DNA of 64,000 nt, from assembly GCF_009931435.1 (NCBI RefSeq), contig NZ_CP043414.1; one strand, given 5' to 3'. The translations under genes and the position numbers were made by a program. The stretch's first letter is position 1, and each line of letters begins with the position of its first letter. This document shows, piece by piece, positions 9,013-64,000 of this stretch. The notes beneath the pieces were generated by a model. The model worked only from the letters and a program-made list of their open reading frames with translations. It searched no databases and was not told the DNA's origin. Source of the DNA: Escherichia coli (GTDB taxonomy: Bacteria > Pseudomonadota > Gammaproteobacteria > Enterobacterales > Enterobacteriaceae).

Positions 9013-10656
9013 TTAGCGAATGTTAATCAGCGCATCAAAAATCGCGTTTGCCGTCTGCAGAACCTGCGCATTCGCCAGGTAATACTGCTGAAAACGTTGC
9101 AAATTTCCGTACTCCTCATCGAGATTGACACCGGAAATCGACTGCTGCTGATTGGAAAGCTGCGTCACCACATTACCTTGCGTGGCGCTACTGGTTTTCA
9201 ACGTCGCGGTTTTATTACCGATATCACTCACTAACGATGCATAAGCATCGTTAAAGGATTTCGCACCGCCCACCGTTTTACTGTTGCTTTGCAGATCCAG
9301 CAGGGCCTGACCGTTGCGGTTGTCGCTATCACCCGCATCTTCTTCGCTCGCCATGGCGATTTTCGCTTCGTCAGTGATTAATACATCCATGTTGACGATG
9401 GCGTCACTTACCGGTTTCAGCGTGAAGCTGTCGTTAACGGCAGGCGTTCCTGTAAACGTCAACTCCAGACCATCAAATGCCACTTTACCGTTGGCATCCG
9501 GCGCCACCGTAAAAGTGGTATTGCTGGCAAGGCGGGTGACCTGCCACTGATTATTATCGAACGAGATTTTGTAATCTGTCGCCAGTACCGCGGAGGCATC
9601 AGTTACCGTTGCACCGATCGCAACGCCACCATTGTTGTTAGTATTTTGCAGAACCGCGGGCTTACCGATAGCAAAGAAATCCTCCCCTTCTTTACCATTG
9701 GCATCATACCCCTTGTTATGTTGGGCATTGAAAGCCTCGGCAAATGCCAGCGCCAGTTGTCCGAGCGTATTACGCGTCTGGTCGAGATCCTGAGAACGAA
9801 ATGTCAGAATACCGCCCAGTGACCCGGTATTCAGCAATTTCTCCGGGATCTCAAGATTGCCCGCAGTCCCATCAACATAAGCGACAGTCGTACGAGAAGG
9901 GTCGGCGCTGGAAGGAACTGCCGCCAGCTGCCGCGCCGTACTACCCTGAACCAGTGAGTAGCCATTGGCCATCGTGATGTTATAAGTGCCACCATCCTGA
10001 ACGCTGACTTCTACGCCAACAATCTGGTTTAATTCGCTCACCAGTTGATCGCGTTGATCCAGCAGATTGTTAGGTGACGCCCCTGCCCCCACGCCTGTCA
10101 GGCGGGAGATCTGATCGTTCAGGCTGGCGATTTGTTTAGCGTAATTGTTGATCTGATCAACGCTGGCACCTATCGCGATATTGACCTGTTTGTCCTGGTC
10201 GCGCAGATATTGATCGGTGGTTTTAAACTGATTCACCAACCCTTCTGATTTCCCAATCAGCGCCTGGCGTGCTGCCGGGTCTTCCGCGTTACTTACCAGC
10301 GTTTGCAGGCTGGTGAAGAAATCCTGCATCTGTGTTGCCAGCGAAGAGGTACTGGTGGAGAGCATATTGTCGATTTTCGACATCTGCTCATAGCGGGCAG
10401 TCAGGCCGCTACTTTGCGTCTGCGCAGCACGTAACTGGTTGGTAATAAACGCATCATACTCACGCTGCACACCAGAAACGTAGACGCCATTGCCAACCCA
10501 GCCACCCGCGCCCAACGTGCTGTTGGCCTGCGCCATAATAGTGGTTTGGCGGGTATATCCGGCAACGTTATAGCTGGAAATATTATTACTTGCCGTATTT
10601 AACGCCGCCTGAGCCGCGTTCAGTCCGCTCATGGCGTTATTGATCAAGCTGGACAT
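9013..10656 (-). CDS. flgK: flagellar hook-associated protein 1 FlgK
   Basis: 547-aa ORF MSSLINNAMSGLNAAQAALNTASNNISSYNVAGYTRQ... Confidence 0.95.
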   Translation of the reverse strand: MSSLINNAMSGLNAAQAALNTASNNISSYNVAGYTRQTTIMAQANSTLGAGGWVGNGVYVSGVQREYDAFITNQLRAAQTQSSGLTARYEQMSKIDNMLSTSTSSLATQMQDFFTSLQTLVSNAEDPAARQALIGKSEGLVNQFKTTDQYLRDQDKQVNIAIGASVDQINNYAKQIASLNDQISRLTGVGAGASPNNLLDQRDQLVSELNQIVGVEVSVQDGGTYNITMANGYSLVQGSTARQLAAVPSSADPSRTTVAYVDGTAGNLEIPEKLLNTGSLGGILTFRSQDLDQTRNTLGQLALAFAEAFNAQHNKGYDANGKEGEDFFAIGKPAVLQNTNNNGGVAIGATVTDASAVLATDYKISFDNNQWQVTRLASNTTFTVAPDANGKVAFDGLELTFTGTPAVNDSFTLKPVSDAIVNMDVLITDEAKIAMASEEDAGDSDNRNGQALLDLQSNSKTVGGAKSFNDAYASLVSDIGNKTATLKTSSATQGNVVTQLSNQQQSISGVNLDEEYGNLQRFQQYYLANAQVLQTANAIFDALINIR

Positions 10657-50209: not shown

Positions 50210-51187
<978 letters not shown>

Positions 51188-51381
51188 TTATCGTTATGAT
51201 CTACAAAGGCCACCAGCATAACAAATCCGTGGTCGGTGGCAAAAAAAGCAGATTTCGCTTATTAAAACTGCATATTGATTGAAGTTTGAATAAACGCGCG
51301 ATTTTTTTAAAAAGTTTGTTGACCTCAGGTCATGATTTCCCTAAATTAGCGCCCGTTCCAGCAAGACAGGAACGACAATTT

Positions 51382-51469
51382 GGTGAGGTGTCCGAGTGGC
51401 TGAAGGAGCACGCCTGGAAAGTGTGTATACGGCAACGTATCGGGGGTTCGAATCCCCCCCTCACCGCCA
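51382..51469 (+). tRNA. serX: tRNA-Ser (anticodon GGA), CCA encoded
   Basis: ggtgaggtgtccgagtggctgaaggagcacgcctggaaagtgtgtatacggcaacgtatcgggggttcgaatccccccctcaccgcca; long variable arm, T-loop GGTTCGAATCC, anticodon GGA. Confidence 0.93.
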
Positions 51470-51931
51470 TCTTTAAAGAAGAGCTCGTACGAAAGTACGG
51501 GCTTTTTTTTCGTATATTGCACACACCGGGGGGATGAGAAGCCCCGACAGGGGTTCGACAACTGGCGACAGCCAGTTGGACAGACCGTGAACGCAGTGAG
51601 CGGGCTGCCCGCAGGGCGAGCGAAGCGAGTCAATCCCCCCCTCACCGCCATCTTTAAAGAAGAGCTCGTACGAAAGTACGGGCTTTTTTTTTGTATATTG
51701 CACACACCGGGGGGATGAGAAGCCCCGACAGGGGTTCGACAACTGGCGACAGCCAGTTGGACAGACCGTGAACGCAGTGAGCGGGCTGCCCGCAGGGCGA
51801 GCGAAGCGAGTCAATCCCCCCCTCACCGCCATCTTTAAAGAAGAGCTCGTACGAAGGTACGGGCTTTTTTTTCGTATATTGCACACACCGGGGGATGAAA
51901 AGCCCCGACCGGGGTTCGACAACTGGCGACA
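51470..51931 (+). repeat. tRNA-linked tandem direct repeat array: about 2.5 copies of a 181-bp unit, each ending with the 3'-terminal 19 nt of serX
   Basis: Copies at 51470-51650, 51651-51831 and a truncated copy at 51832-51931. Copies 1 and 2 differ by one C/T; copy 3 has about four substitutions or indels. The tRNA 3'-end motif aatccccccctcaccgcca recurs at 51451-51469, 51632-51650 and 51813-51831. Confidence 0.9.
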
Positions 51932-51934
51932 AAC

Positions 51935-53302
51935 TCAATCATCATCCTTGCAGTTGATAAGAATTTCTGCCTCTTTTACAACTATCTTATTACGTCCGGT
52001 TTCTTTCGCTTCATATAGTGCATTATCAGCCATTCGATAGATTTCATTCGGATTTAACGCACTTCCCTGAGTCACCACAGCGCCAATGCTAATCGTCACT
52101 TTTTGCGGTATGGCGTATTCAGGATTATCGCCTGTCAAACGCTCTACATTTGCCCTTATCCTTTCGGCTAAAACTTTCGCGCTTTCAGTATCGGTCTCCG
52201 TCAGCAAGACGCCAAACTCTTCGCCGCCAACGCGTGCTAAAAGGTCATTTGGTCGTATGCTTTTCCCAATGATGCTCACCACTGTTTTTATCACCTGATC
52301 GCCAACCGGATGCCCCCACGTATCGTTAACTTTTTTAAAGTGATCGATATCCATAATCATGACACAATAAGACGTTTTTTGGGCTGATGCTGATTGAGCC
52401 TTCAGTTCATTGAAAAAATAATTCCTGTTAAATATATTAGTTAATGGATCGCGATGGGCAATGTTCTTTGTTACTCGTAGCGCACTGAAAATATGGCACA
52501 TAAATATTACCATAACGGTTAATTTACTGACTACTTCAATAGTGCGGCTAATATACCAAGTGGACACACTATACCTGCTCATAAATAACAGAGAGATATT
52601 ATACAGCACGGCACAGAAAGCAATCACTGATACTCCATTCCAGATATCACAGCGTAAACCATTAAAGTATAGATTAACCAAAAGCAAGATTAACCACATG
52701 AAAATTATTATGGTAACATATGAGGTTTTCCAGACTACCTGACCATTTTCATTTGTTAACTCGGCAATATGTAAACTGTAGTCATCATAATGACTACTTA
52801 GCATGTGAGCAACTGCCGCCCCCCCATAAATAAAAAATAGGCTTATACACAATGTCATTTTTTTGGAAAAAAAACAGCGTTTCTTATTGTTTTCACTAAC
52901 TTTATTCACCAGCGCTAGCAATATTAACATGCACAAACTCATCTGACGAAACAAATAATAAATTGCAATATCATTTTGTACAACGCTGCTTATCAAATGC
53001 CCCTCAATAAATTGCTGAATGATAATGACAGTTTTAACAAAGTAAATCAAACAACTCAGAAACGCTAAACTAAGTATACAGTTTGAAAATTGCACACGAT
53101 CATAAATGAAATACAATTGCATGAAAATAAATGCAACGGTATCGATAAAAAATAAAGCAATCATAACCATTAGATAGGTTGATCGTGGAACAACCTCCTC
53201 AACGGTTGGCTGATTAAACCAACTATTTACCAAAACGAATGCAAGCCCAAACAATAAGCTCACCAATACAGTACTACTAATTCCCAAATAGTCTTTTTCC
53301 AT
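51935..53302 (-). CDS. dgcT: diguanylate cyclase DgcT (YcdT), MASE4 membrane domain plus GGDEF
   Basis: Track ORF trimmed to ATG at 53300-53302 (MEKDYLGISSTVLVSLLFGLAFVLVNSWF...), about 455 aa; GGDEF active-site variant RVGGEEFGVLL. Confidence 0.9.
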   Translation of the reverse strand: MEKDYLGISSTVLVSLLFGLAFVLVNSWFNQPTVEEVVPRSTYLMVMIALFFIDTVAFIFMQLYFIYDRVQFSNCILSLAFLSCLIYFVKTVIIIQQFIEGHLISSVVQNDIAIYYLFRQMSLCMLILLALVNKVSENNKKRCFFSKKMTLCISLFFIYGGAAVAHMLSSHYDDYSLHIAELTNENGQVVWKTSYVTIIIFMWLILLLVNLYFNGLRCDIWNGVSVIAFCAVLYNISLLFMSRYSVSTWYISRTIEVVSKLTVMVIFMCHIFSALRVTKNIAHRDPLTNIFNRNYFFNELKAQSASAQKTSYCVMIMDIDHFKKVNDTWGHPVGDQVIKTVVSIIGKSIRPNDLLARVGGEEFGVLLTETDTESAKVLAERIRANVERLTGDNPEYAIPQKVTISIGAVVTQGSALNPNEIYRMADNALYEAKETGRNKIVVKEAEILINCKDDD

Positions 53303-53649
53303 AAAGCTACACCAATCTGTAGGTTGTAGATCCCTTTCTGTCACTAATAGATATAAGAACTGTACTGTTGTCAATATAAAAATCCACCACAAACAATACC
53401 AATGATGATAGTTGCAGACCGCAATTATTATTACCTTAGTGCTTTATACATTCTTCGCGACAAGACAGGCTTGCAAATACATATAAATGGTTATAAGGAA
53501 ATCCTTATAAAACATTAATTCATAGATATATTAGGAATAACAATTGAATCCGTGAGTACAGTAACGCTGCATTTCATCAGGACTTTCGAAAAATCCGATA
53601 TCATGCATCGGAATTTACTGATTTAATTATTTTAATCCTAATTTATTTT

Positions 53650-53891
53650 GAAAAAGGCATTGGAATTTATGCCGTATTCCTGAAGTTCCTCATCATTGGA
53701 ATGGATTTTCGGGCGAGAAAAGGATTTTATATGGATACTCTACTCATCATTTCTTCTTCTCATCATCAACAATTCACGTCTCTCTTCCGCGTTTAATAAC
53801 GGATTATGATGTGCATAAAAAATATCTTTCGTTTCAGTTACCTGTAATTAGATACAGAGAGAGATTTTGGCAATACATGGAGTAATACAGG
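53650..53891 (+). promoter_or_regulatory. pgaA 5' leader with multiple GGA motifs (CsrA-type)
   Basis: GGA motifs recur in ...ttggaatggatt..aaaggatt..tatggata..cggattatg..catggagtaatacaggATG, including one in the Shine-Dalgarno. The pgaA leader is a known CsrA target; boundaries estimated. Confidence 0.5.
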
Positions 53892-56315
53892 ATGTATTCA
53901 AGTAGCAGAAAAAGGTGCCCGAAAACCAAATGGGCTTTGAAAATTCTTACTGCCGCATTTTTAGCAGCGAGTCCCGCGGCGAAGAGTGCTGTTAATAATG
54001 CCTATGATGCATTGATTATCGAAGCTCGCAAGGGAAATACTCAGCCAGCTTTGTTATGGTTTGCACAAAAATCAGCACTCAGTAATAACCAAATTGCTGA
54101 CTGGTTACAGATTGCCTTATGGGCCGGGCAAGATAAACAGGTTATTACCGTTTACAACCGCTACCGTCATCAGCAATTACCAGCGCGTGGTTATGCAGCT
54201 GTCGCCGTCGCTTATCGTAACCTGCAACAATGGCAAAACTCGCTTACACTGTGGCAAAAGGCACTCTCTCTGGAGTCGCAAAATAAGGATTATCAACGGG
54301 GACAAATTTTAACCCTGGCAGATGCGGGTCACTATGATTCTGCGCTGGTTAAACTTAAGCAGCTTAACTCTGGAGCACCGGACAAAGCTAATTTACTCGC
54401 AGAAGCCTATATCTATAAACTGGCGGGGCGGCATGAGGATGAATTACGGGCGATGACAGGGTCATTACCTGAAAATGCCTTAACGCAACAATATCCCACA
54501 GAATACGTGCAGGCATTACGGAATAATCAACTTGCTGCCGCGATTGACGATGCCAATTTAACGCCAGATATTCGCGCTGATATTCATGCCGAACTGGTCA
54601 GACTGTCGTTTATGCCTACGCGCAGTGAAAGTGAACGTTATGCCATTGCCGATCGCGCCCTCGCCCAATACGCTGCATTAGAAATTCTGTGGCATGATAA
54701 CCCTGACCGCACTGCCCAGTACCAGCGTATTCAGGTTGATCATCTTGGCGCGTTATTAACTCGCGATCGTTATAAAGACGTTATTTCTCACTATCAGCGT
54801 TTAAAAAAGACGGGGCAAATTATTCCGCCCTGGGCGCAATATTGGGTTGCGTCGGCTTATCTCAAAGAACATCAGCCAAAAAAAGCACAGTCAATAATGA
54901 CAGAGATCTTTTATCACAAGGAGACCATTGCCCCGGATTTATCCGATGAAGAACTTGCGGATCTCTTTTACAGCCACCTGGAGAGTGAAAATTATCCCGG
55001 CGCGCTAACTGTCACCCAACATACCATTAATACTTCGCCGCCTTTCCTTCGGTTAATGGGCACGCCTACGAGCATCCCGAATGATACCTGGTTACAGGGG
55101 CATTCGTTTCTCTCAACCGTAGCAAAATATAGTAATGATCTTCCTCAGGCTGAAATGACAGCCAGAGAGCTTGCTTATAACGCACCAGGAAATCAGGGAC
55201 TGCGCATTGATTACGCGAGTGTGTTACAAGCCCGCGGTTGGCCTCGTGCGGCAGAAAATGAATTAAAAAAAGCAGAAGTGATCGAGCCACGTAATATTAA
55301 TCTGGAGGTTGAACAAGCCTGGACAGCATTAACGTTACAAGAATGGCAGCAGGCAGCGGTCTTAACGCACGATGTTGTCGAACGTGAACCGCAAGATCCC
55401 GGCGTTGTACGTTTAAAACGTGCGGTTGATGTACATAATCTTGCAGAGCTTCGTATCGCTGGTTCAACAGGAATTGATGCCGAAGGTCCGGATAGTGGCA
55501 AACATGATGTCGACTTAACCACCATCGTTTATTCACCACCGCTGAATGATAACTGGCGCGGTTTTGCTGGATTCGGTTATGCCGATGGACAATTTAGCGA
55601 AGGAAAAGGGATTATTCGCGACTGGCTTGCGGGTGTTGAGTGGCGGTCACGTAATATCTGGCTTGAGGCGGAGTACACCGAACGCTTTTTCAATCATGAG
55701 CATAAACCCGGCGCGCGCCTGTCTGGCTGGTATGATTTTAATGATAACTGGCGTATTGGTTCGCAACTGGAACGCCTCTCTCACCGCGTTCCATTACGGG
55801 CAATGAAAAATGGTGTTACAGGCAACAGTGCACAGGCTTATGTTCGCTGGTATCAAAATGAGCGGCGTAAGTACGGTGTCTCTTGGGCTTTCACTGATTT
55901 TTCTGACAGTAATCAGCGTCATGAAGTCTCACTTGAGGGTCAGGAACGCATCTGGTCTTCACCATATTTGATTGTCGATTTCCTCCCCAATCTGTATTAC
56001 GAACAAAATACAGAACACGACACCCCATACTACAACCCTATAAAAATGTTCGATATTGTTCCGGCATTTGAGGCAAGTCATTTGTTATGGCGAAGCTATG
56101 AAAATAGCTGGGAGCAAATCTTCAGCGCAGGTGTTGGTGCCTCCTGGCAAAAACATTATGGCACGGATGTCGTCACCCAACTCGGCTACGGGCAACGCAT
56201 TAGCTGGAATGACGTGATTGATGCTGGCGCAACGCTACGCTGGGAAAAACGACCTTATGACGGTGACAGAGAACACAACTTATACGTTGAATTCGATATG
56301 ACATTCAGATTTTAA
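53892..56315 (+). CDS. pgaA: poly-beta-1,6-N-acetylglucosamine outer-membrane export porin PgaA
   Basis: 807-aa ORF MYSSSRKRCPKTKWALKILTAAFLAASPAAKSAVNNAYDALIIEARKGN... (TPR region plus C-terminal beta-barrel). Confidence 0.96.
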   Translation: MYSSSRKRCPKTKWALKILTAAFLAASPAAKSAVNNAYDALIIEARKGNTQPALLWFAQKSALSNNQIADWLQIALWAGQDKQVITVYNRYRHQQLPARGYAAVAVAYRNLQQWQNSLTLWQKALSLESQNKDYQRGQILTLADAGHYDSALVKLKQLNSGAPDKANLLAEAYIYKLAGRHEDELRAMTGSLPENALTQQYPTEYVQALRNNQLAAAIDDANLTPDIRADIHAELVRLSFMPTRSESERYAIADRALAQYAALEILWHDNPDRTAQYQRIQVDHLGALLTRDRYKDVISHYQRLKKTGQIIPPWAQYWVASAYLKEHQPKKAQSIMTEIFYHKETIAPDLSDEELADLFYSHLESENYPGALTVTQHTINTSPPFLRLMGTPTSIPNDTWLQGHSFLSTVAKYSNDLPQAEMTARELAYNAPGNQGLRIDYASVLQARGWPRAAENELKKAEVIEPRNINLEVEQAWTALTLQEWQQAAVLTHDVVEREPQDPGVVRLKRAVDVHNLAELRIAGSTGIDAEGPDSGKHDVDLTTIVYSPPLNDNWRGFAGFGYADGQFSEGKGIIRDWLAGVEWRSRNIWLEAEYTERFFNHEHKPGARLSGWYDFNDNWRIGSQLERLSHRVPLRAMKNGVTGNSAQAYVRWYQNERRKYGVSWAFTDFSDSNQRHEVSLEGQERIWSSPYLIVDFLPNLYYEQNTEHDTPYYNPIKMFDIVPAFEASHLLWRSYENSWEQIFSAGVGASWQKHYGTDVVTQLGYGQRISWNDVIDAGATLRWEKRPYDGDREHNLYVEFDMTFRF

Positions 56316-56323
56316 GGATAAAT

Positions 56324-58342
56324 ATGTTACGTAATGGAAATAAATATCTCCTGATGCTGGTGAGTATAATTATGCTCACTGCGTGCATTAGCCAGTCAAG
56401 AACATCATTTATACCGCCACAGGATCGCGAATCTTTACTCGCCGAGCAACCGTGGCCGCATAATGGTTTTGTGGCGATTTCATGGCATAACGTTGAAGAC
56501 GAAGCTGCCGACCAGCGTTTTATGTCAGTGCGGACATCAGCACTGCGTGAACAATTTGCCTGGCTGCGCGAGAACGGTTATCAACCGGTCAGTATTGCTC
56601 AAATTCGTGAAGCACATCGAGGAGGAAAACCGCTACCGGAAAAAGCAGTAGTGCTGACTTTTGATGACGGCTACCAGAGTTTTTATACCCGCGTCTTCCC
56701 AATTCTTCAGGCCTTCCAGTGGCCTGCTGTATGGGCCCCCGTCGGCAGTTGGGTCGATACGCCAGCGGATGAACAAGTAAAATTTGGCGATGAGATGGTC
56801 GATCGAGAATATTTTGCCACGTGGCAACAAGTGCGAGAAGTTGCGCGTTCCCGGCTCGTTGAGGTCGCTTCTCATACATGGAATTCTCACTACGGTATTC
56901 AGGCTAATGCCACCGGCAGCTTATTGCCTGTATATGTAAATCGTGCATATTTTACTGACCACGCACGGTATGAAACCGCAGCAGAATACCGGGAAAGAAT
57001 GCGTCTGGATGCTGTAAAAATGACGGAATACCTGCGTACAAAGGCTAAGGTAAATCCACACGTTTTTGTTTGGCCTTATGGTGAAGCGAATGGCATAGCG
57101 ATAGAGGAATTAAAAAAACTCGGTTATGACATGTTCTTCACCCTTGAATCAGGTTTGGCAAATGCGTCACAATTGGATTCCATTCCGCGAGTATTAATCG
57201 CCAATAATCCCTCATTAAAAGAGTTTGCCCAGCAAATTATTACCGTACAGGAAAAATCATCACAACGGGTAATGCATATCGATCTTGATTACGTTTATGA
57301 CGAAAACCGCCAGCAAATGGATCGCAATATTGATGTGCTAATTCAGCGGGTGAAAGATATGCAAATATCAACCGTGTATTTGCAGGCATTTGCTGATCCC
57401 GATGGTGATGGGCTGGTCAAAGAGGTCTGGTTTCCAAATCGTTTGCTACCAATGAAAGCAGATATTTTTAGTCGGGTTGCCTGGCAATTACGTACCCGCT
57501 CAGGTGTAAACATCTATGCGTGGATGCCGGTATTAAGCTGGGATTTAGATCCCACATTAACGCGAGTAAAATATTTACCAACAGGGGAGAAAAAAGCACA
57601 AATTCATCCTGAACAATATCGCCGTCTATCTCCTTTTGATGACAGGGTCAGAGCACAAGTTGGCATGTTATATGAAGATCTTGCCGGACATGCTGCTTTT
57701 GATGGCATATTGTTCCACGATGATGCTTTGCTTTCAGATTATGAAGATGCCAGTGCACCGGCTATCACGGCTTATCAGCAAGCAGGCTTTAGCGGGAGTC
57801 TGAGCGAAATTCGACAAAACCCGGAGCAATTTAAACAGTGGACCCGCTTTAAAAGTCGTGCGTTAACTGACTTCACTTTAGAACTTAGTGCGCGCGTAAA
57901 AGCCATTCGCGGTCCACATGTTAAAACTGCACGAAATATTTTTGCACTTCCGGTAATACAACCTGAAAGTGAAGCCTGGTTTGCACAGAATTATGCTGAT
58001 TTCCTAAAAAGCTATGACTGGACCGCTATTATGGCTATGCCTTATATGGAAGGTGTCGCAGAAAAATCGGCTGACCAATGGTTAATACAATTGACCAATC
58101 AAATTAAAAACATCCCTCAGGCTAAAGACAAATCTATTTTAGAATTACAGGCACAAAACTGGCAGAAAAATGGTCAGCATCAGGCTATTTCTTCGCAACA
58201 ACTCGCTCACTGGATGAGCCTATTACAACTGAATGGAATGAAAAACTATGGTTATTATCCCGACAATTTTCTGCATAACCAACCTGAAATAGACGTTATT
58301 CGTCCTGAGTTTTCAACAGCCTGGTATCCGAAAAATGATTAA
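56324..58342 (+). CDS. pgaB: poly-beta-1,6-N-acetylglucosamine N-deacetylase lipoprotein PgaB
   Basis: 672-aa [51 protein letters not shown]... Confidence 0.96.
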
Positions 58343-59660
58343 TCGCATCGTATCGTTTTTTATATTATGTCTGGTGTTATGCATACCCCTATGCGTAGCG
58401 TACTTTCACTCTGGTGAACTGATGATGAGGTTCGTTTTCTTCTGGCCGTTTTTTATGTCCATTATGTGGATTGTTGGCGGCGTCTATTTCTGGGTATATC
58501 GTGAACGCCACTGGCCGTGGGGAGAAAACGCACCAGCTCCCCAGTTGAAAGATAATCCGTCTATCTCCATTATCATTCCCTGTTTTAATGAGGAGAAAAA
58601 CGTTGAGGAAACCATACACGCCGCTTTAGCACAGCGTTATGAGAACATTGAAGTTATTGCCGTAAATGACGGTTCAACAGACAAAACCCGTGCCATCCTG
58701 GATCGCATGGCTGCACAAATTCCCCACCTGCGGGTCATTCATCTGGCGCAAAACCAGGGGAAAGCCATTGCGCTTAAAACCGGAGCTGCCGCGGCGAAAA
58801 GTGAATATCTGGTGTGCATTGATGGCGATGCGTTATTAGACCGCGATGCGGCGGCATATATTGTGGAACCGATGTTGTACAACCCGCGTGTGGGTGCCGT
58901 AACCGGTAATCCTCGTATTCGAACACGTTCTACCCTGGTGGGTAAAATTCAGGTTGGCGAGTATTCCTCAATTATTGGTTTGATCAAGCGAACCCAGCGT
59001 ATCTATGGAAACGTATTTACCGTTTCTGGTGTTATTGCCGCATTTCGTCGCAGCGCCCTGGCAGAAGTGGGTTACTGGAGTGACGATATGATCACCGAAG
59101 ATATTGATATTAGCTGGAAGCTGCAGTTGAATCAGTGGACGATTTTTTACGAGCCACGGGCGCTGTGCTGGATATTAATGCCTGAAACGTTAAAAGGGCT
59201 GTGGAAACAGCGCCTGCGCTGGGCTCAGGGCGGTGCAGAAGTATTCCTCAAAAATATGACAAGGCTATGGCGCAAAGAAAACTTTCGAATGTGGCCACTG
59301 TTTTTTGAATACTGTCTGACGACAATATGGGCCTTTACCTGCCTGGTCGGTTTCATTATTTACGCAGTCCAACTTGCAGGTGTACCGTTAAATATTGAAT
59401 TGACACATATCGCTGCGACACATACTGCCGGAATATTATTGTGTACGTTATGTTTACTGCAATTTATTGTCAGCCTGATGATCGAGAATCGCTATGAGCA
59501 TAATCTGACTTCATCGCTTTTCTGGATTATTTGGTTCCCGGTTATTTTCTGGATGCTGAGCCTGGCAACGACATTGGTATCATTTACACGAGTCATGTTG
59601 ATGCCTAAAAAGCAACGCGCCCGTTGGGTAAGTCCCGATCGAGGGATTCTGAGAGGTTAA
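58335..59660 (+). CDS. pgaC: poly-beta-1,6-N-acetylglucosamine synthase PgaC (GT2)
   Basis: 441-aa [52 protein letters not shown]...; its start overlaps the pgaB stop. Confidence 0.96.
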
Positions 59661-59661
59661 T

Positions 59662-60075
59662 ATGAACAATTTAATTATTACGACCCGACAATCGCCAGTA
59701 CGTTTAATGGTTGATTATGTTGCCACAACCATCTTATGGACATTATTTGCTTTGTTCATATTCTTATTCACCATGGATCTGCTGACGGGTTATTACTGGC
59801 AAAGTGAGGCCAGAAGCCGACTTCAGTTCTATTTTTTGCTGGCAGTGGCGAATGCCGTCGTGTTAATTGTCTGGGCGCTGTACAATAAGCTGCGTTTTCA
59901 AAAACAGCAGCATCATGCAGCCTACCAATATACGCCGCAAGAATATGCAGAGAGCTTAGCAATACCTGATGAGCTCTATCAGCAACTACAAAAAAGCCAC
60001 AGGATGAGCGTACACTTCACCAGCCAGGGGCAAATAAAAATGGTTGTTTCAGAAAAAGCGCTAGTCCGGGCATAA
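59662..60075 (+). CDS. pgaD: PGA synthase accessory membrane protein PgaD
   Basis: 137-aa [50 protein letters not shown]... Confidence 0.95.
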
Positions 60076-60089
60076 ACACCCAAAACAAA

Positions 60090-60106
60090 GCCCGGTTCGC
60101 CCGGGC
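60090..60106 (-). terminator. hairpin terminator in the convergent pgaD/phoH spacer
   Basis: gcccgg-ttcgc-ccgggc; on the minus strand it is followed by tttgttttgggtgttt, so it likely terminates phoH and may act bidirectionally. Confidence 0.55.
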
Positions 60107-60124
60107 TCTGCGCCGATAATACAC

Positions 60125-61189
60125 TTAACTGTATGCATGTAGCGTACGTTGGCAAAGTGCCGAACGTACGCAATCCTCTTTACCGAATCGGACGATCCCG
60201 ACCATTTCATCTTCTTCGAAACGTTCCAGCGCGTCACTTAATCCGGAGCGCACGCCGCGAGGCAAATCGCATTGCGTGATATCACCGTTGACGATAACCG
60301 TCACGTTCTCCCCGAGGCGGGTTAAAAACATTTTCATTTGCGCGGCAGTCACATTCTGCGCCTCGTCAAGAATGACGACTGCATTTTCAAAGGTACGTCC
60401 ACGCATATAGGCGAACGGCGCGATTTCCACCTTCCCTATTTCCGGTCGCAGGCAGTACTGCATAAAGGAAGCCCCTAAGCGCCGGACCAGCACGTCGTAG
60501 ACCGGACGAAAATAGGGAGCAAACTTTTCTGCGATATCTCCAGGTAAGAAGCCAAGATCTTCATCGGCTTGCAGAACTGGACGGGTGACGATAATCCTGT
60601 CGACATCCTTATGTATCAGGGCCTCTGCCGCTTTTGCTGCGCTGATCCAGGTTTTTCCGCACCCGGCTTCGCCGGTGGCGAATATCAGCTGCTTACTCTC
60701 AATAGCCTTCAGATAGTGCAATTGCGCTTCATTTCGCGCGAGGATGGGCGAGGTATCGCGACTGTCGCGGGCCATACCAATGGCTTCTACGCCGCTCATC
60801 TGCACAAGCGAGGTGACCGATTCTTCTTCACGCTGCTTATGGCTGCGCGAATCCCGTCTCAGCACACGTTTTGCCTCGCGACGAGCTTTGATCACTGCTT
60901 TTTGTCTTCCCATGGAGAGCACCTTGAGTTGTTTGTATTCATCACACGCGCCGTTGGCAGCGCGATTATGCGCACGAACATCAGAGGGTTGGCTTCCTTG
61001 TAAGCCATAGTTTGCTTTTGGATAAAATGCCGAAAAACGGCTACGCGCACCGTTTACGGCGTCGGTAACACATGAAAAGAAAGGTTGAGGTTGAAAATGC
61101 AAAGTGACGAGATGACTACCGGAGGAGAAATCTCCGCGAGTGGTGGAGCGTTGCTTAACAAAACATTGTCCAGTACAGGACGTTACCAT
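60125..61189 (-). CDS. phoH: phosphate starvation-inducible ATPase PhoH
   Basis: 354-aa ORF MVTSCTGQCFVKQRSTTRGDFSSGSHLVTLHFQ...; Walker A GEAGCGKT in the C-terminal domain. Confidence 0.93.
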   Translation of the reverse strand: MVTSCTGQCFVKQRSTTRGDFSSGSHLVTLHFQPQPFFSCVTDAVNGARSRFSAFYPKANYGLQGSQPSDVRAHNRAANGACDEYKQLKVLSMGRQKAVIKARREAKRVLRRDSRSHKQREEESVTSLVQMSGVEAIGMARDSRDTSPILARNEAQLHYLKAIESKQLIFATGEAGCGKTWISAAKAAEALIHKDVDRIIVTRPVLQADEDLGFLPGDIAEKFAPYFRPVYDVLVRRLGASFMQYCLRPEIGKVEIAPFAYMRGRTFENAVVILDEAQNVTAAQMKMFLTRLGENVTVIVNGDITQCDLPRGVRSGLSDALERFEEDEMVGIVRFGKEDCVRSALCQRTLHAYS

Positions 61190-61336
61190 CCGCGATCTCC
61201 ATAGTGACTGACTATCACTGCCGGGAACTTCCGCTGCTACTTAATAATTACAACAGATCTCGCATTCATTGCAACAATATATTCACTTATATTTAACTAT
61301 AAAACACCATTTCAGTGACATTAGTTTCTACTGGAA

Positions 61337-61358
61337 AGATGACAGAGTGATGACAGTG
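61337..61358 (-). promoter_or_regulatory. Pho box (PhoB binding site) upstream of phoH
   Basis: Minus strand reads aCTGTCATcactCTGTCATctt, two direct CTGTCAT repeats spaced 11 bp, about 150 nt upstream of the phoH start. Confidence 0.65.
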
Positions 61359-61387
61359 ATGAAAAAAGCTGTGTGCTTTCAGCAGGA

Positions 61388-61552
61388 TTCGCATCAGGCA
61401 TCAACGCACGAACGCCGGATGCGGCGTGACCGCCTTATCCTGCCTACCAAACCCGCACCGATTGTAGGCATGATAAGACGCGCAAGCGTCGCATCAGGCA
61501 TCAGCGCACGAGCGCACGAACGCCTGGTACGGCGTAAACGCCTTATACGCCT
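61388..61552. repeat. cluster of REP/BIME palindromic units
   Basis: gcatcaggcatcaacgcacgaacgccggatgcggcgtgaccgccttatcc ... gtaggcatgataagacgcgcaagcgtcgcatcaggca ... ggcgtaaacgccttatacgcc between efeB and phoH. Confidence 0.8.
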
Positions 61553-61559
61553 AAAAACA

Positions 61560-62831
61560 TTAAACCCGCAATAATGCGCTTCCGAGATAATCGCTCGCGT
61601 CCTTCACCCCCGGCAGCGCAAAAAAATAACCGCCGCCGATGGGTTTAACGTATTCCTCCAGCGCTTCACCATTGAGCCTTTTTTGTACTGTCAGGAAGCC
61701 CTTTTCCAGATCGTGTTGGTAGCAGACAAACAGCAACCCCATATCCAGTTGCCCGGAATTGGTGACGCCCAACGAATAACTGTAGCCACGACGCAGCATC
61801 AGGCTGGACTCGCTCTCCGCCGTGCGGGGATTCGCCAGCCGGATATGGCTGTCCAGCGCGATCACCTTCCCTTCCGGATCACTGGCATAATCGGGAACAT
61901 CATGCTCATGCTGCATTCCCAGCGGCGCACCGGTTTGCTTATCGCGACCAAAAATTGTCTGCTGTTCTTTCAGCGGCGTTCTGTCCCAAAATTCCACTCG
62001 AAACTGAATCAAACGCACCGCCTGGTAGCTGCCACCGATTGTCCACGCAGGCTCCTGCTGATCTGCCGTTACCCACACCACTTTTTGCATCAACTTATCA
62101 TTCTGGCTATCGGGATTGGCAGTGCCGTCTTTGAAACCCAGCAAATTAATCGGCGTCTCTTTGCCTTTACTACGCGCTGCGTGATCGGAAATAAACCCTT
62201 CCCGCTTCCAGCGCACACTGAGCAAATCCGGCGTATGTTTGATGATATCGCGCAGCGCATGGATCACCGTGTCCTGGGTGTTGGCGCAAATTTGTAGCAA
62301 CACATCACCATGACATAACGCCGCATCCAGCGAGTCGTTGGGGAAACGCGTCATCTTCTGCAACTTTTTCGGCATCTGTGGCGCAAGACCAAACCGTTCA
62401 TCAAACAACGAGTGACCAACTGACAACGTGATGGTGAGATTGTCGGGCGCAATGTAGCCGCCAAGAATGCCGGAATCGAGTGGTGGCAGGCGCGGATTTG
62501 GCGTTTCTGGTGCTGCTCCGCCCTGAGTCAGAAAAGCAAAACGCTGAGTCAACAAGCGAAACAATCGCTCAAGATCAGCTTTATCGCTGGCAAGCACATC
62601 AAACGCCACCAGCATCATTGCCGCCTGCTGCGGCGTCAGAATACCCGCCTGATGTTCGCCATAAAACGGCTGCGCTTCACTGCGCGCATCCGGTGAAAGC
62701 GTCCCCGGCGCACTTTGCGTTTTTTGAGCATGCGCTACCGGACAACTTCCTGCCAGTGCCAGCGCGCCAATCCCTTTCAGTAAACGTCGGCGTGACGGTT
62801 CATTCACGCCGTTTTCATCTTCATACTGCAT
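61560..62831 (-). CDS. efeB: Tat-exported DyP-type haem peroxidase EfeB
   Basis: 423-aa [39 protein letters not shown]... (twin-arginine signal SRRRLLK). Confidence 0.95.
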
Positions 62832-62836
62832 AACGC

Positions 62837-63964
62837 TTAATCCAGTCCCAGCACACCACGAAGTTGCGCCAGATCTTCCGCCAGCGCAGTAATCGGCCCT
62901 TTCAGCGCATTACGGTCGGCATCGGTCAGCTTGTCGTAAGTTTCATAACCGTCTTTGGTTCGGTATTTCGCCAGAATGGTATCTACCTTTTTGAAGTTGG
63001 CATCGACTTTTGCCAGCAGTTCCGGGTTGGCTTTTTGCAGTTGCGGACGCAGCAGATCGACAATTTTCTGCGAGCCTTCAACGTTAGCCTGGAAGTCCCA
63101 CAGATCGGTGTGGCTGTAGCGATCTTCTTCACCGCTGATTTTGCTGGCTGCCACTTCCTCAATCAGTCCGGCTGCGCCGCCGACCACTTTTGAAGGTGGG
63201 AAAGCCAGTTCACTGATCCGTTTTTGTAAATCGACCACATCGGTATAAAGCTGGTCAGCATACTGATCCATTCCTTTGGTGGTGTTGTCGCCAAACAATG
63301 CTTTTTCCAGACGGTGGAAACCGGTGAATTTCGGATCGCCGGCTTTTTGCTCGTAATCATCTTCACGGGCGTCAATGCTACCATCCAGATCAGAGAACAG
63401 CTCAGCAATCGGTTCAATGCGCTCATAGTGCTGGCGCGTCGGCGCATACAGTGCTTTCGCTTTTTCGATATCGCCTGCTTTAATAGCGTCGGTAAATGCT
63501 TTGGTGTCGGTCACCAGCTGCGTGGTTTCCGCCATGACATACGCTTTATATGCAGTAATTGCACCACCAAGACTTAACAGCGCATCACTTTGCGTCGCAT
63601 CCGCCGTTGCTTCACCTTTAACGATCAACTTCCCTTTCGGGTTAGTCAGCAGACCGCAGGTCATATCGTATTCGCCAGGCTGTAAATTCGCCGTCATTTT
63701 CTGGCTAAAACCAGGGGCGATATTTTCCCGCTCTTCCACCACCATCACGCCTTTGAGGATCTCCCACTCCAGCGCCTTCTGGCTGTGGTTCTGAATAATG
63801 AACTGTGTTTTCCCGGCGTTAACCGTAATGGTCATCGGTTCGCACTGTTTATCCGTCACGGTCACTTTGACCTGCGGAACATCAGCAGCGTTAGCCATAA
63901 AAGCAGAGGAGAACAGCGCAGCCACGCTTAATTGCAGTGCACTATGGCGGAAGTTAATGGTCAT
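62837..63964 (-). CDS. efeO: periplasmic iron-uptake component EfeO
   Basis: 375-aa [52 protein letters not shown]... Confidence 0.95.
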
Positions 63965-64000
63965 GACGAGACTATCCCTTTAAAGTATGTTGTAACTAAG
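63961..64000 (-). CDS. efeU: 3' end of ferrous iron permease gene efeU (gene continues past the window end)
   Basis: Minus-strand frame ends ...GIVSS* with its TGA overlapping the efeO ATG (ATGA). Only about 13 codons are in the window, so the call rests on operon context. Confidence 0.4.

Follow-up and report, generated by a model that had tools for sequence, protein, structure and literature searches.

The serX–dgcT locus of the Escherichia coli DNA analysed here – a stretch of 64,000 nt from contig NZ_CP043414.1 of assembly GCF_009931435.1, hereafter the window – is, we hold with considerable confidence, the empty allele of a variable chromosomal site. On this reading the locus comprises an intact tRNA gene, serX, followed by 2.66 units of a tRNA-linked repeat (TLR); it is devoid of a 33-kb segment carried by other strains and reduced in K-12 to an IS3-truncated remnant; its compact arrangement is most likely ancestral; and the integrase islands found at serX elsewhere in the species join the genuine end of the tRNA gene.

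The window holds a single tRNA gene, a tRNA-Ser(GGA) at 51382–51469 on the plus strand (ARAGORN, whole window; 53.8 bits against the Rfam tRNA model). It is intact, and we identify it as serX because ghrA, ycdX, ycdY and ycdZ lie to one side of it and dgcT and pgaA to the other. Convergent with serX is dgcT (ycdT; 51935–53302, minus strand), which appears in the list of open reading frames as a protein of 455 aa with a C-terminus of probably ancestral type, ...KEAEILINCKDDD*, and is a diguanylate cyclase of the MASE4 and GGDEF type (Pfam, 5.9e-64 and 3.2e-50 respectively); its name was taken from the RefSeq annotation of related strains. The gap between the two genes measures 465 bp (51470–51934), of which 462 bp (51470–51931) are tandem array, and three nucleotides (AAC) stand between the end of the array and the dgcT stop codon. 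A first-pass annotation of the window had reported that serX adjoins dgcT with nothing but a 462-bp array between them: this observation is confirmed, in its coordinates as in its length.

Comparison with K-12 gave the measure of what is missing. In MG1655 the order is dgcT, 10 bp, IS3D (1,258 bp), the ymdE pseudogene, ycdU, 131 bp, an array of 3.4 units and serX, the two outer genes being 3,330 bp apart. Compared by local BLAST with K-12 positions 1,076,000–1,150,000, the whole window gave two colinear alignments – window 1–51931 with K-12 1,149,034–1,097,102, and window 51978–64000 with K-12 1,094,200–1,082,207 – which cover all of the window but 51932–51977 and span K-12 1,082,207–1,149,034, from a point just upstream of efeO to one within fabH. 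The window falls 2,828 bp short of K-12, and the entire difference lies at the serX–dgcT locus: nothing in the window aligned with K-12 1,094,201–1,096,960, and neither ycdU, ymdE nor the genes of O-island 47 (OI-47) lie between the array and dgcT. In their place are 85 nt (51893–51977; BLAST breakpoints 51892 and 51978) that have no K-12 or O157 counterpart and that comprise the distal part of a shortened TLR unit together with the last 14 codons of dgcT; the ycdU...OI-47 segment occupies this position in K-12 and O157 strains. IS3D, the only mobile element annotated in the K-12 interval, is not in the window. The first-pass annotation had placed IS3, ymdE and ycdU between dgcT and serX on the K-12 map, had put the shortfall of the window at about 3 kb, and had seen no mobile-element genes in it; the first two statements proved right, and the absence of IS3D indirectly agrees with the third.

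What remains between the two genes is, on the evidence of its sequence, a member of the known TLR family (Rfam RtT, RF00391). Twenty-two TLRs are described from ten K-12 loci, each ending in 18–19 nt of the upstream tRNA or rRNA gene, and they have no known function save for three that are rRNA-linked (PMC8144298); the prototype is the 178-bp × 3.14 array of tyrT–tyrV (Egan & Landy 1978; Rudd 1999; reviewed in PMC8144298). The serX array (51451–51931, plus strand) was delimited by Tandem Repeats Finder, by repeat search and by homology to the K-12 serX array and the tyrT 178-bp array: its period is 181 bp, with 2.7 copies (2.66 units), 98% matches and a score of 927, and it divides into units at 51451–51631 and 51632–51812 and a shortened unit at 51813–51931, which terminates ...GGCGACA, 3 nt before the dgcT stop codon. 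Each unit opens with AATCCCCCCCTCACCGCCA, the last 19 nt of serX. The copy at 51451–51469 is the genuine 3′ end of the tRNA gene; those at 51632–51650 and 51813–51831, identical to it and on the same plus strand, are the 3′ ends of TLR units 1 and 2. The units thus lie directly 3′ of a tRNA gene whose end they repeat, which is where TLRs are found.

Within the units two further features recur. Right after serX there is a hairpin followed by a T8 tract (51475–51510, plus strand), repeated at 51656–51691 and 51837–51872; a terminator scan flagged the copy at 51656–51691 (plus strand) along with three minus-strand sites, and the other two plus-strand copies were placed by the 181-nt register. These three predicted terminators separate serX from the distal units. 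The hairpins after the 19-nt motifs score as terminator-like on the minus strand too. The hairpin and T8 tract probably end serX transcription and perhaps that of dgcT also. The second feature is an RtT-like RNA element, present at 51514–51650 and 51695–51831 (plus strand), each copy matching RF00391 with 41.7 bits (E=6e-6; gathering score 45); the orthologous serX units of K-12, about 98% identical to those of the window, score 46.3, 46.3 and 36.1 bits on the same scale, and 'RtT sRNA' is annotated after serX by RefSeq/PGAP in comparison loci L004 and L042. The predicted fold of a single serX unit is a three-way junction with closing stem GGGGGGAU/AUCCCCCC (z=-3.4). A unit as a whole comprises the 19-nt tRNA end, a predicted hairpin and T8 terminator, and a structured RtT-like element of some 120 nt. 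A literature search for serX in combination with RtT found no match.

The parallel with tyrT is close. Extracted from K-12, the tyrT–tyrV array consists of three 178-bp units, each opening with the last 19 nt of tRNA-Tyr; like it, the serX array is made of tandem units of about 180 bp placed directly 3′ of a tRNA gene and in the same orientation. The units of the two arrays have a homologous body (GGATGAGAAGC..CGAC..GGTTCGA...) and the same closing stem, the 5′ strand of which follows the tRNA-specific 3′ strand. Indeed, both stems are kept by compensatory changes that track the cognate tRNA (GGGGGG/CCCCCC at serX versus GGAAGG/CCUUCC at tyrT): 5 of the 24 predicted pairs are changed on both sides (MAFFT, RNAalifold), a count which, coming from two independent lineages, is supportive rather than statistical. 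The arrays differ in one respect, for the serX units bear a strong hairpin and T8 tract after each 19-nt motif, whereas the tyrT spacer, judged by eye and not by scan, has none. The number of full units varies from strain to strain: none in L003, one in L002 (to which the window is most closely related, at 99.3%), two in the window, three in K-12 and five to six in strain EA7. From this range, 0 to about 6, we infer that array length would change by unequal recombination between units.

The segment that is missing from the window and cut down in K-12 is intact in O157:H7. In strain TT12A the genes next to dgcT are, in order, one of the EAL type (called vmpA/pdeT in published work), one for a regulator, a fimbrial group, a pair for two-partner secretion and a cluster resembling those for fatty-acid or polyketide synthesis; then come a full-length acyl-carrier-protein S-malonyltransferase gene (ymdE; Pfam Acyl_transf_1), ycdU and a TLR remnant. 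The intact O157 segment, about 33 kb, corresponds to OI-47 (31,727 bp, z1528–z1556; PMC8565820) plus ymdE and ycdU, and sits in the same slot, from dgcT to the serX TLR array, as IS3D–ymdE′–ycdU of K-12. The window has neither OI-47 nor the K-12 stump, and its junction includes 85 nt that K-12 and O157 lack. The intact O157 segment carries no annotated integrase gene, and its edges fall inside the last TLR unit and within the last 14 codons of dgcT, not at the 19-nt core.

The K-12 stretch, a stump of 2.7 kb, is colinear with the end of the O157 segment at 97% identity. It is the remnant of that segment after an IS3-associated deletion, because the sequences flanking the K-12 IS3 (TTT and GTG) show no target duplication and are separated by 31,741 bp in O157. 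Also widespread is a second variant (L004/O103 and L037) with the same IS3–dgcT junction, which retains 185 bp more of ymdE and is missing 31,556 bp. In K-12 and in many other strains the IS3 that stands 10 bp 3′ of dgcT is associated with the loss of some 31.6–31.7 kb, with ymdE′ and ycdU left behind.

Junction probes run against 5,426 complete E. coli genomes show how these alleles are distributed. The K-12/O157 junction (array to ycdU) was found in 2,657 genomes (49%) and the IS3/ymdE′ junction as in K-12 in 2,181 (40%). The compact junction (array to dgcT) was present in 1,479 (27%), among which serX runs uninterrupted to dgcT in 1,159 (21%); most of the remaining compact genomes, ATCC 25922 for example, have an island that parts serX from a displaced core, and the uninterrupted genomes are nearly all of the type without a full unit, as in B2 strains such as JJ1887. 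In a further 972 (18%) the array leads to a DUF2726 gene and phoH, without dgcT or pgaABCD: strain EA7 (L042, 10383–12917) has serX, five to six TLR units, the DUF2726 gene and phoH in this order. The locus is variable across E. coli, as the first-pass annotation had maintained, and the compact state is not that of K-12 or of most strains, the ycdU-side junction being that of K-12 and of 49% of genomes as against 21% with serX uninterrupted to dgcT. Rarer arrangements also exist. In strain 47538 (NZ_CM135149.1, 3027637–3028769) a B2-type locus, compact in all else, has a copy of IS200C inserted between serX and dgcT, and L045 (6400–10015) has dgcT with the K-12-type tail, IS3, a gene of the GmrSD family and a serX minus its 3′ end in which ARAGORN finds no tRNA.

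A further issue is which of these states came first. The compact junction reads ...GGCGACA|(A/G)A(C/A)T(C/T)A(A/T)TCATCATCC and goes with a DgcT tail ...KDDD*; junction and tail are common to the window, to B2 strains, to the cryptic Escherichia loci L008 and L005 and to the plasmid-like contigs L047 and L048. K-12 and O157 have another DgcT tail in common, ...NFCESP*. Since the cryptic lineage and a plasmid-borne copy have this junction and this tail as well, the compact allele is likely to be ancestral and the 33-kb segment a later, replacement-type insertion. The lineage of the window would either never have had this segment or have lost it by allelic replacement. Nucleotide identity between the cryptic lineage and the window is about 90% towards ghrA and about 80% towards dgcT–pga; L008 is compact, and L005 and L007 have a 2.1-kb insert upstream of the same shortened unit. 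The plasmid-like contigs L047 and L048 (1–6540) carry pgaABCD–dgcT and the shortened TLR unit at 91% identity to the window, and our comparison suggests that their pga–dgcT module was mobilised from an Escherichia chromosome.

Some details of these loci may be recorded here. The insert in L005 (3668–5924) and L007, which lies between a serX-proximal unit and a dgcT-side unit, contains two hypothetical genes, one of them with a weak DUF1878 match. Contigs L047 and L048 are labelled Salmonella enterica and bear TraG/TraT, or Rep3 and an integrase; their homology to the window stops in the TLR terminator, beside GCACTGTTGCAAA, which resembles a terminal repeat of the IS6 family. Among the DgcT homologues obtained from the protein database, three were set aside as uninformative on polarity: L044 (distant and unlinked to serX), L045 (the rare K-12-type variant) and L046 (a short recombinant contig).

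The opposite polarity, in which an ancestor carried the ycdU/OI-47 segment or the K-12 stump and the compact state arose by its later deletion, we consider unlikely. Deletions at this locus are frequent – two nested IS3-associated ones, plus the type without dgcT and pga – and the segment is carried by about half of E. coli genomes, both of which speak for such a history. But deletion from a K-12/O157 haplotype would not restore the 85 nt at 51893–51977, which are absent there, nor would it recreate the KDDD* tail; moreover, the tail and the 85 nt are common to the cryptic lineage and the plasmid-borne copy. The first-pass annotation had described the locus as unoccupied or resolved: unoccupied it is, in the window, but with regard to the 33-kb segment 'resolved' does not suit a state that looks ancestral. 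For integrase islands 'resolved' cannot be told apart from 'never occupied'.

The make-up of the repeats themselves invites a more radical suggestion. In each TLR unit the 27 nt that end the cognate tRNA are present but interrupted, within the T-loop, by an insert of about 74 nt (GGGGTTCGA|ATCCCCCCCTCACCGCCA at serX, window 51514–51650 and 51695–51831; AAGGTTCGA|ATCCTTCCCCCACCACCA at tyrT, L035). The inserts at serX and tyrT are partly homologous, a hairpin that resembles a T-arm but has an altered loop stands before the split segment, and the TLR pseudo-site reads GAGTCAATCC... where the genuine serX end has GGTTCGAATCC.... In addition, the breakpoints of four unrelated haplotypes fall within some 90 nt of the terminal TLR unit: the compact one (window 51813–51931; ...GGCGACA|AACTCA), that with ycdU/OI-47 (L001; ...CACCGGG|TGCCCC in K-12/O157), that with DUF2726 and no pga (L042; ...GACCGGG|ATACTT in EA7) and that of the cryptic clade with its 2.1-kb insert (L005; ...CGCAGTG|CCCCGAC). 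TLRs might on such grounds be fossils of a small element that targeted the T-loop, or else recombination-prone boundaries that seed the turnover of accessory genes beside tRNA genes; we put this forward as speculation, and quite improbable speculation. A separate observation is that in the cryptic lineage L008 (11672–11778) there is a unit of 106 nt that is without exactly the 74-nt insert, GGGGTTCGAATCCCCCCC being restored; this unit likely arose by unequal exchange between a TLR body and the T-arm of the tRNA.

That serX is an integration site, as the first-pass annotation had it, is borne out. The islands OI-43, OI-48, SpLE1 and SRL-PAI are flanked by a 14-bp repeat, CCCCCTCACCGCCA, which is the last 14 nt of serX (PMC3064760), and islands are evident in L006, L036 and L041. 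In L041 serX is intact and a CP4-like island starts immediately behind it, exactly at the 14-bp core; in L006 and L036 an integrase lies beside a displaced core that is followed by the shortened unit and adjoins dgcT or ycdU. An estimate from 13/60 evenly spaced rows puts the share of genomes with an occupied serX at roughly a fifth. The core of these P4-type islands at serX and serW – the tellurite-resistance and adherence island OI-48/SpLE1, SRL-PAI and the CP4-like kind – is present three times in the window, at 51456, 51637 and 51818, the first within the genuine serX end. The window has an intact attB sequence at serX and, unlike occupied genomes, neither integrase nor island: only the TLR array lies between serX and dgcT, and the window is colinear with the core genes of K-12. 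In L041 the island end abutting serX (9471–9520) brings its own hairpin and T-tract terminator, which replaces that of the TLR.

To the first-pass annotation the repeated 19-nt motif looked like iterated att cores. In its full form the proposal is that tyrosine-integrase elements, inserting and excising one after another, built up the array, with the internal copies serving as secondary attachment sites; we judge it very unlikely. It can draw on the exact 14-bp repeat of OI-48, OI-43 and SRL-PAI in each unit, on the frequency with which serX is occupied, and on the resemblance between a 27-nt tRNA end split in the T-loop by some 74 nt and a small insertion at a typical integrase crossover. Yet repeats of this family are found at ten K-12 loci, rRNA operons included; the motif is rather a hallmark of TLRs, and K-12 has the same array with more units. 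A further argument comes from serW (L043, K-12), which is identical to serX over 88/88 nt and has in common with it about 49 nt downstream, the terminator hairpin included: it receives the same island family (OI-43) and has no TLR body or array in K-12, which argues that the array is not a by-product of the island integrase. Arrays occur, besides, with or without islands, and the arm of the island nearest its integrase bears no relation to the TLR body.

The internal cores, for their part, show no sign of use, since a probe made of the last 60 nt of the TLR body, the 19-nt motif and 140 nt of island end, representing one type of island end, found no island joined to an internal TLR core in any of the 5,426 genomes (0/5,426 at a coverage of at least 80%). 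All island junctions met in this search begin at the motif inside an annotated tRNA-Ser; for the island end type probed, P4-type islands elsewhere join the genuine tRNA end only. Separately from the 33-kb segment, then, P4-type integrase islands use serX by recombining at its genuine end, and none is present in the window. As to the related premise that IS3–ymdE–ycdU of K-12 is a small island inserted at the serX 3′ end, its position beside a tRNA gene and its low G+C give it next to no credibility against a segment without an integrase, a motif search in which the dgcT side of the K-12 stretch yielded no 19-nt core, an array-side edge 61 nt beyond a core, and a truncated ymdE whose full-length form runs into a 31.7-kb cluster in O157, the contiguous sequence of which refutes it: what stands there is the IS3-truncated end of the integrase-free 33-kb segment.

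Several points weigh against the reading of the window as an empty and ancestral allele with a TLR array. L005 and L008, at 98.8% identity on the ghrA side, count as a single lineage, and the polarity consequently depends on a single outgroup and a mobilised plasmid copy; it comes, moreover, from comparison of junctions and tails, not from tree-based reconstruction, and the outgroup comparison was made without E. albertii and E. fergusonii. A scan of genome contigs with a DgcT peptide pattern yielded one true orthologue (L008), the other 26 loci encoding unrelated GGDEF proteins. A more distant pga–dgcT locus (L044) is not beside serX, so that the arrangement is not traceable beyond Escherichia. 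The RtT matches of the window fall just under the Rfam gathering score. The three junction probes leave about 6% of genomes without a match, and the test of internal cores used one island end type only. Finally, the origin of the first TLR unit may be ancient and integrase-related.

A putative sigma-70-like promoter 5′ of serX (51319–51347, plus strand; TTGACC, a spacer of 17 nt, TAAATT), located by consensus scan, fits a tRNA start at 51382. On that side ghrA (50210–51148, minus strand) forms a conserved flank, identified from its open reading frame, from colinearity and from the annotation of L001 and L002; on the other, pgaA (53892–56315, plus strand; open reading frame and annotation of L002 and L003) is divergent from dgcT. 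The G+C content of dgcT and of the dgcT–pgaA intergenic region (window 52000–54000) is 34–38%, as against about 50% in the flanks. Open reading frames within the array, for instance one of 149 aa with a TTG start at 51473–51922 on the minus strand, run through the repeats and were judged spurious; weak Rfam matches to sX4, Thr_leader and a plastid 3′ UTR family, which fall on the tRNA and terminator, were put down to chance or to the tRNA.

The compact serX–dgcT arrangement is a common and already documented polymorphism, and TLR/RtT units, OI-47 and the islands at serX have all been described before. The significance of the present account is mainly for annotation. Repeats of a tRNA end beside the tRNA gene need not be att scars; those of enterobacteria are for the most part TLR/RtT units. 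The K-12 'genes' ymdE and ycdU are the stump of the O-island 47 region of O157. The allele frequencies at serX–dgcT–pga are relevant to cyclic di-GMP and poly-N-acetylglucosamine (PGA) biofilm genotypes, and the serX locus, with its 0 to 6 units and several types of junction, would provide a handy natural series for work on the function and origin of TLRs.

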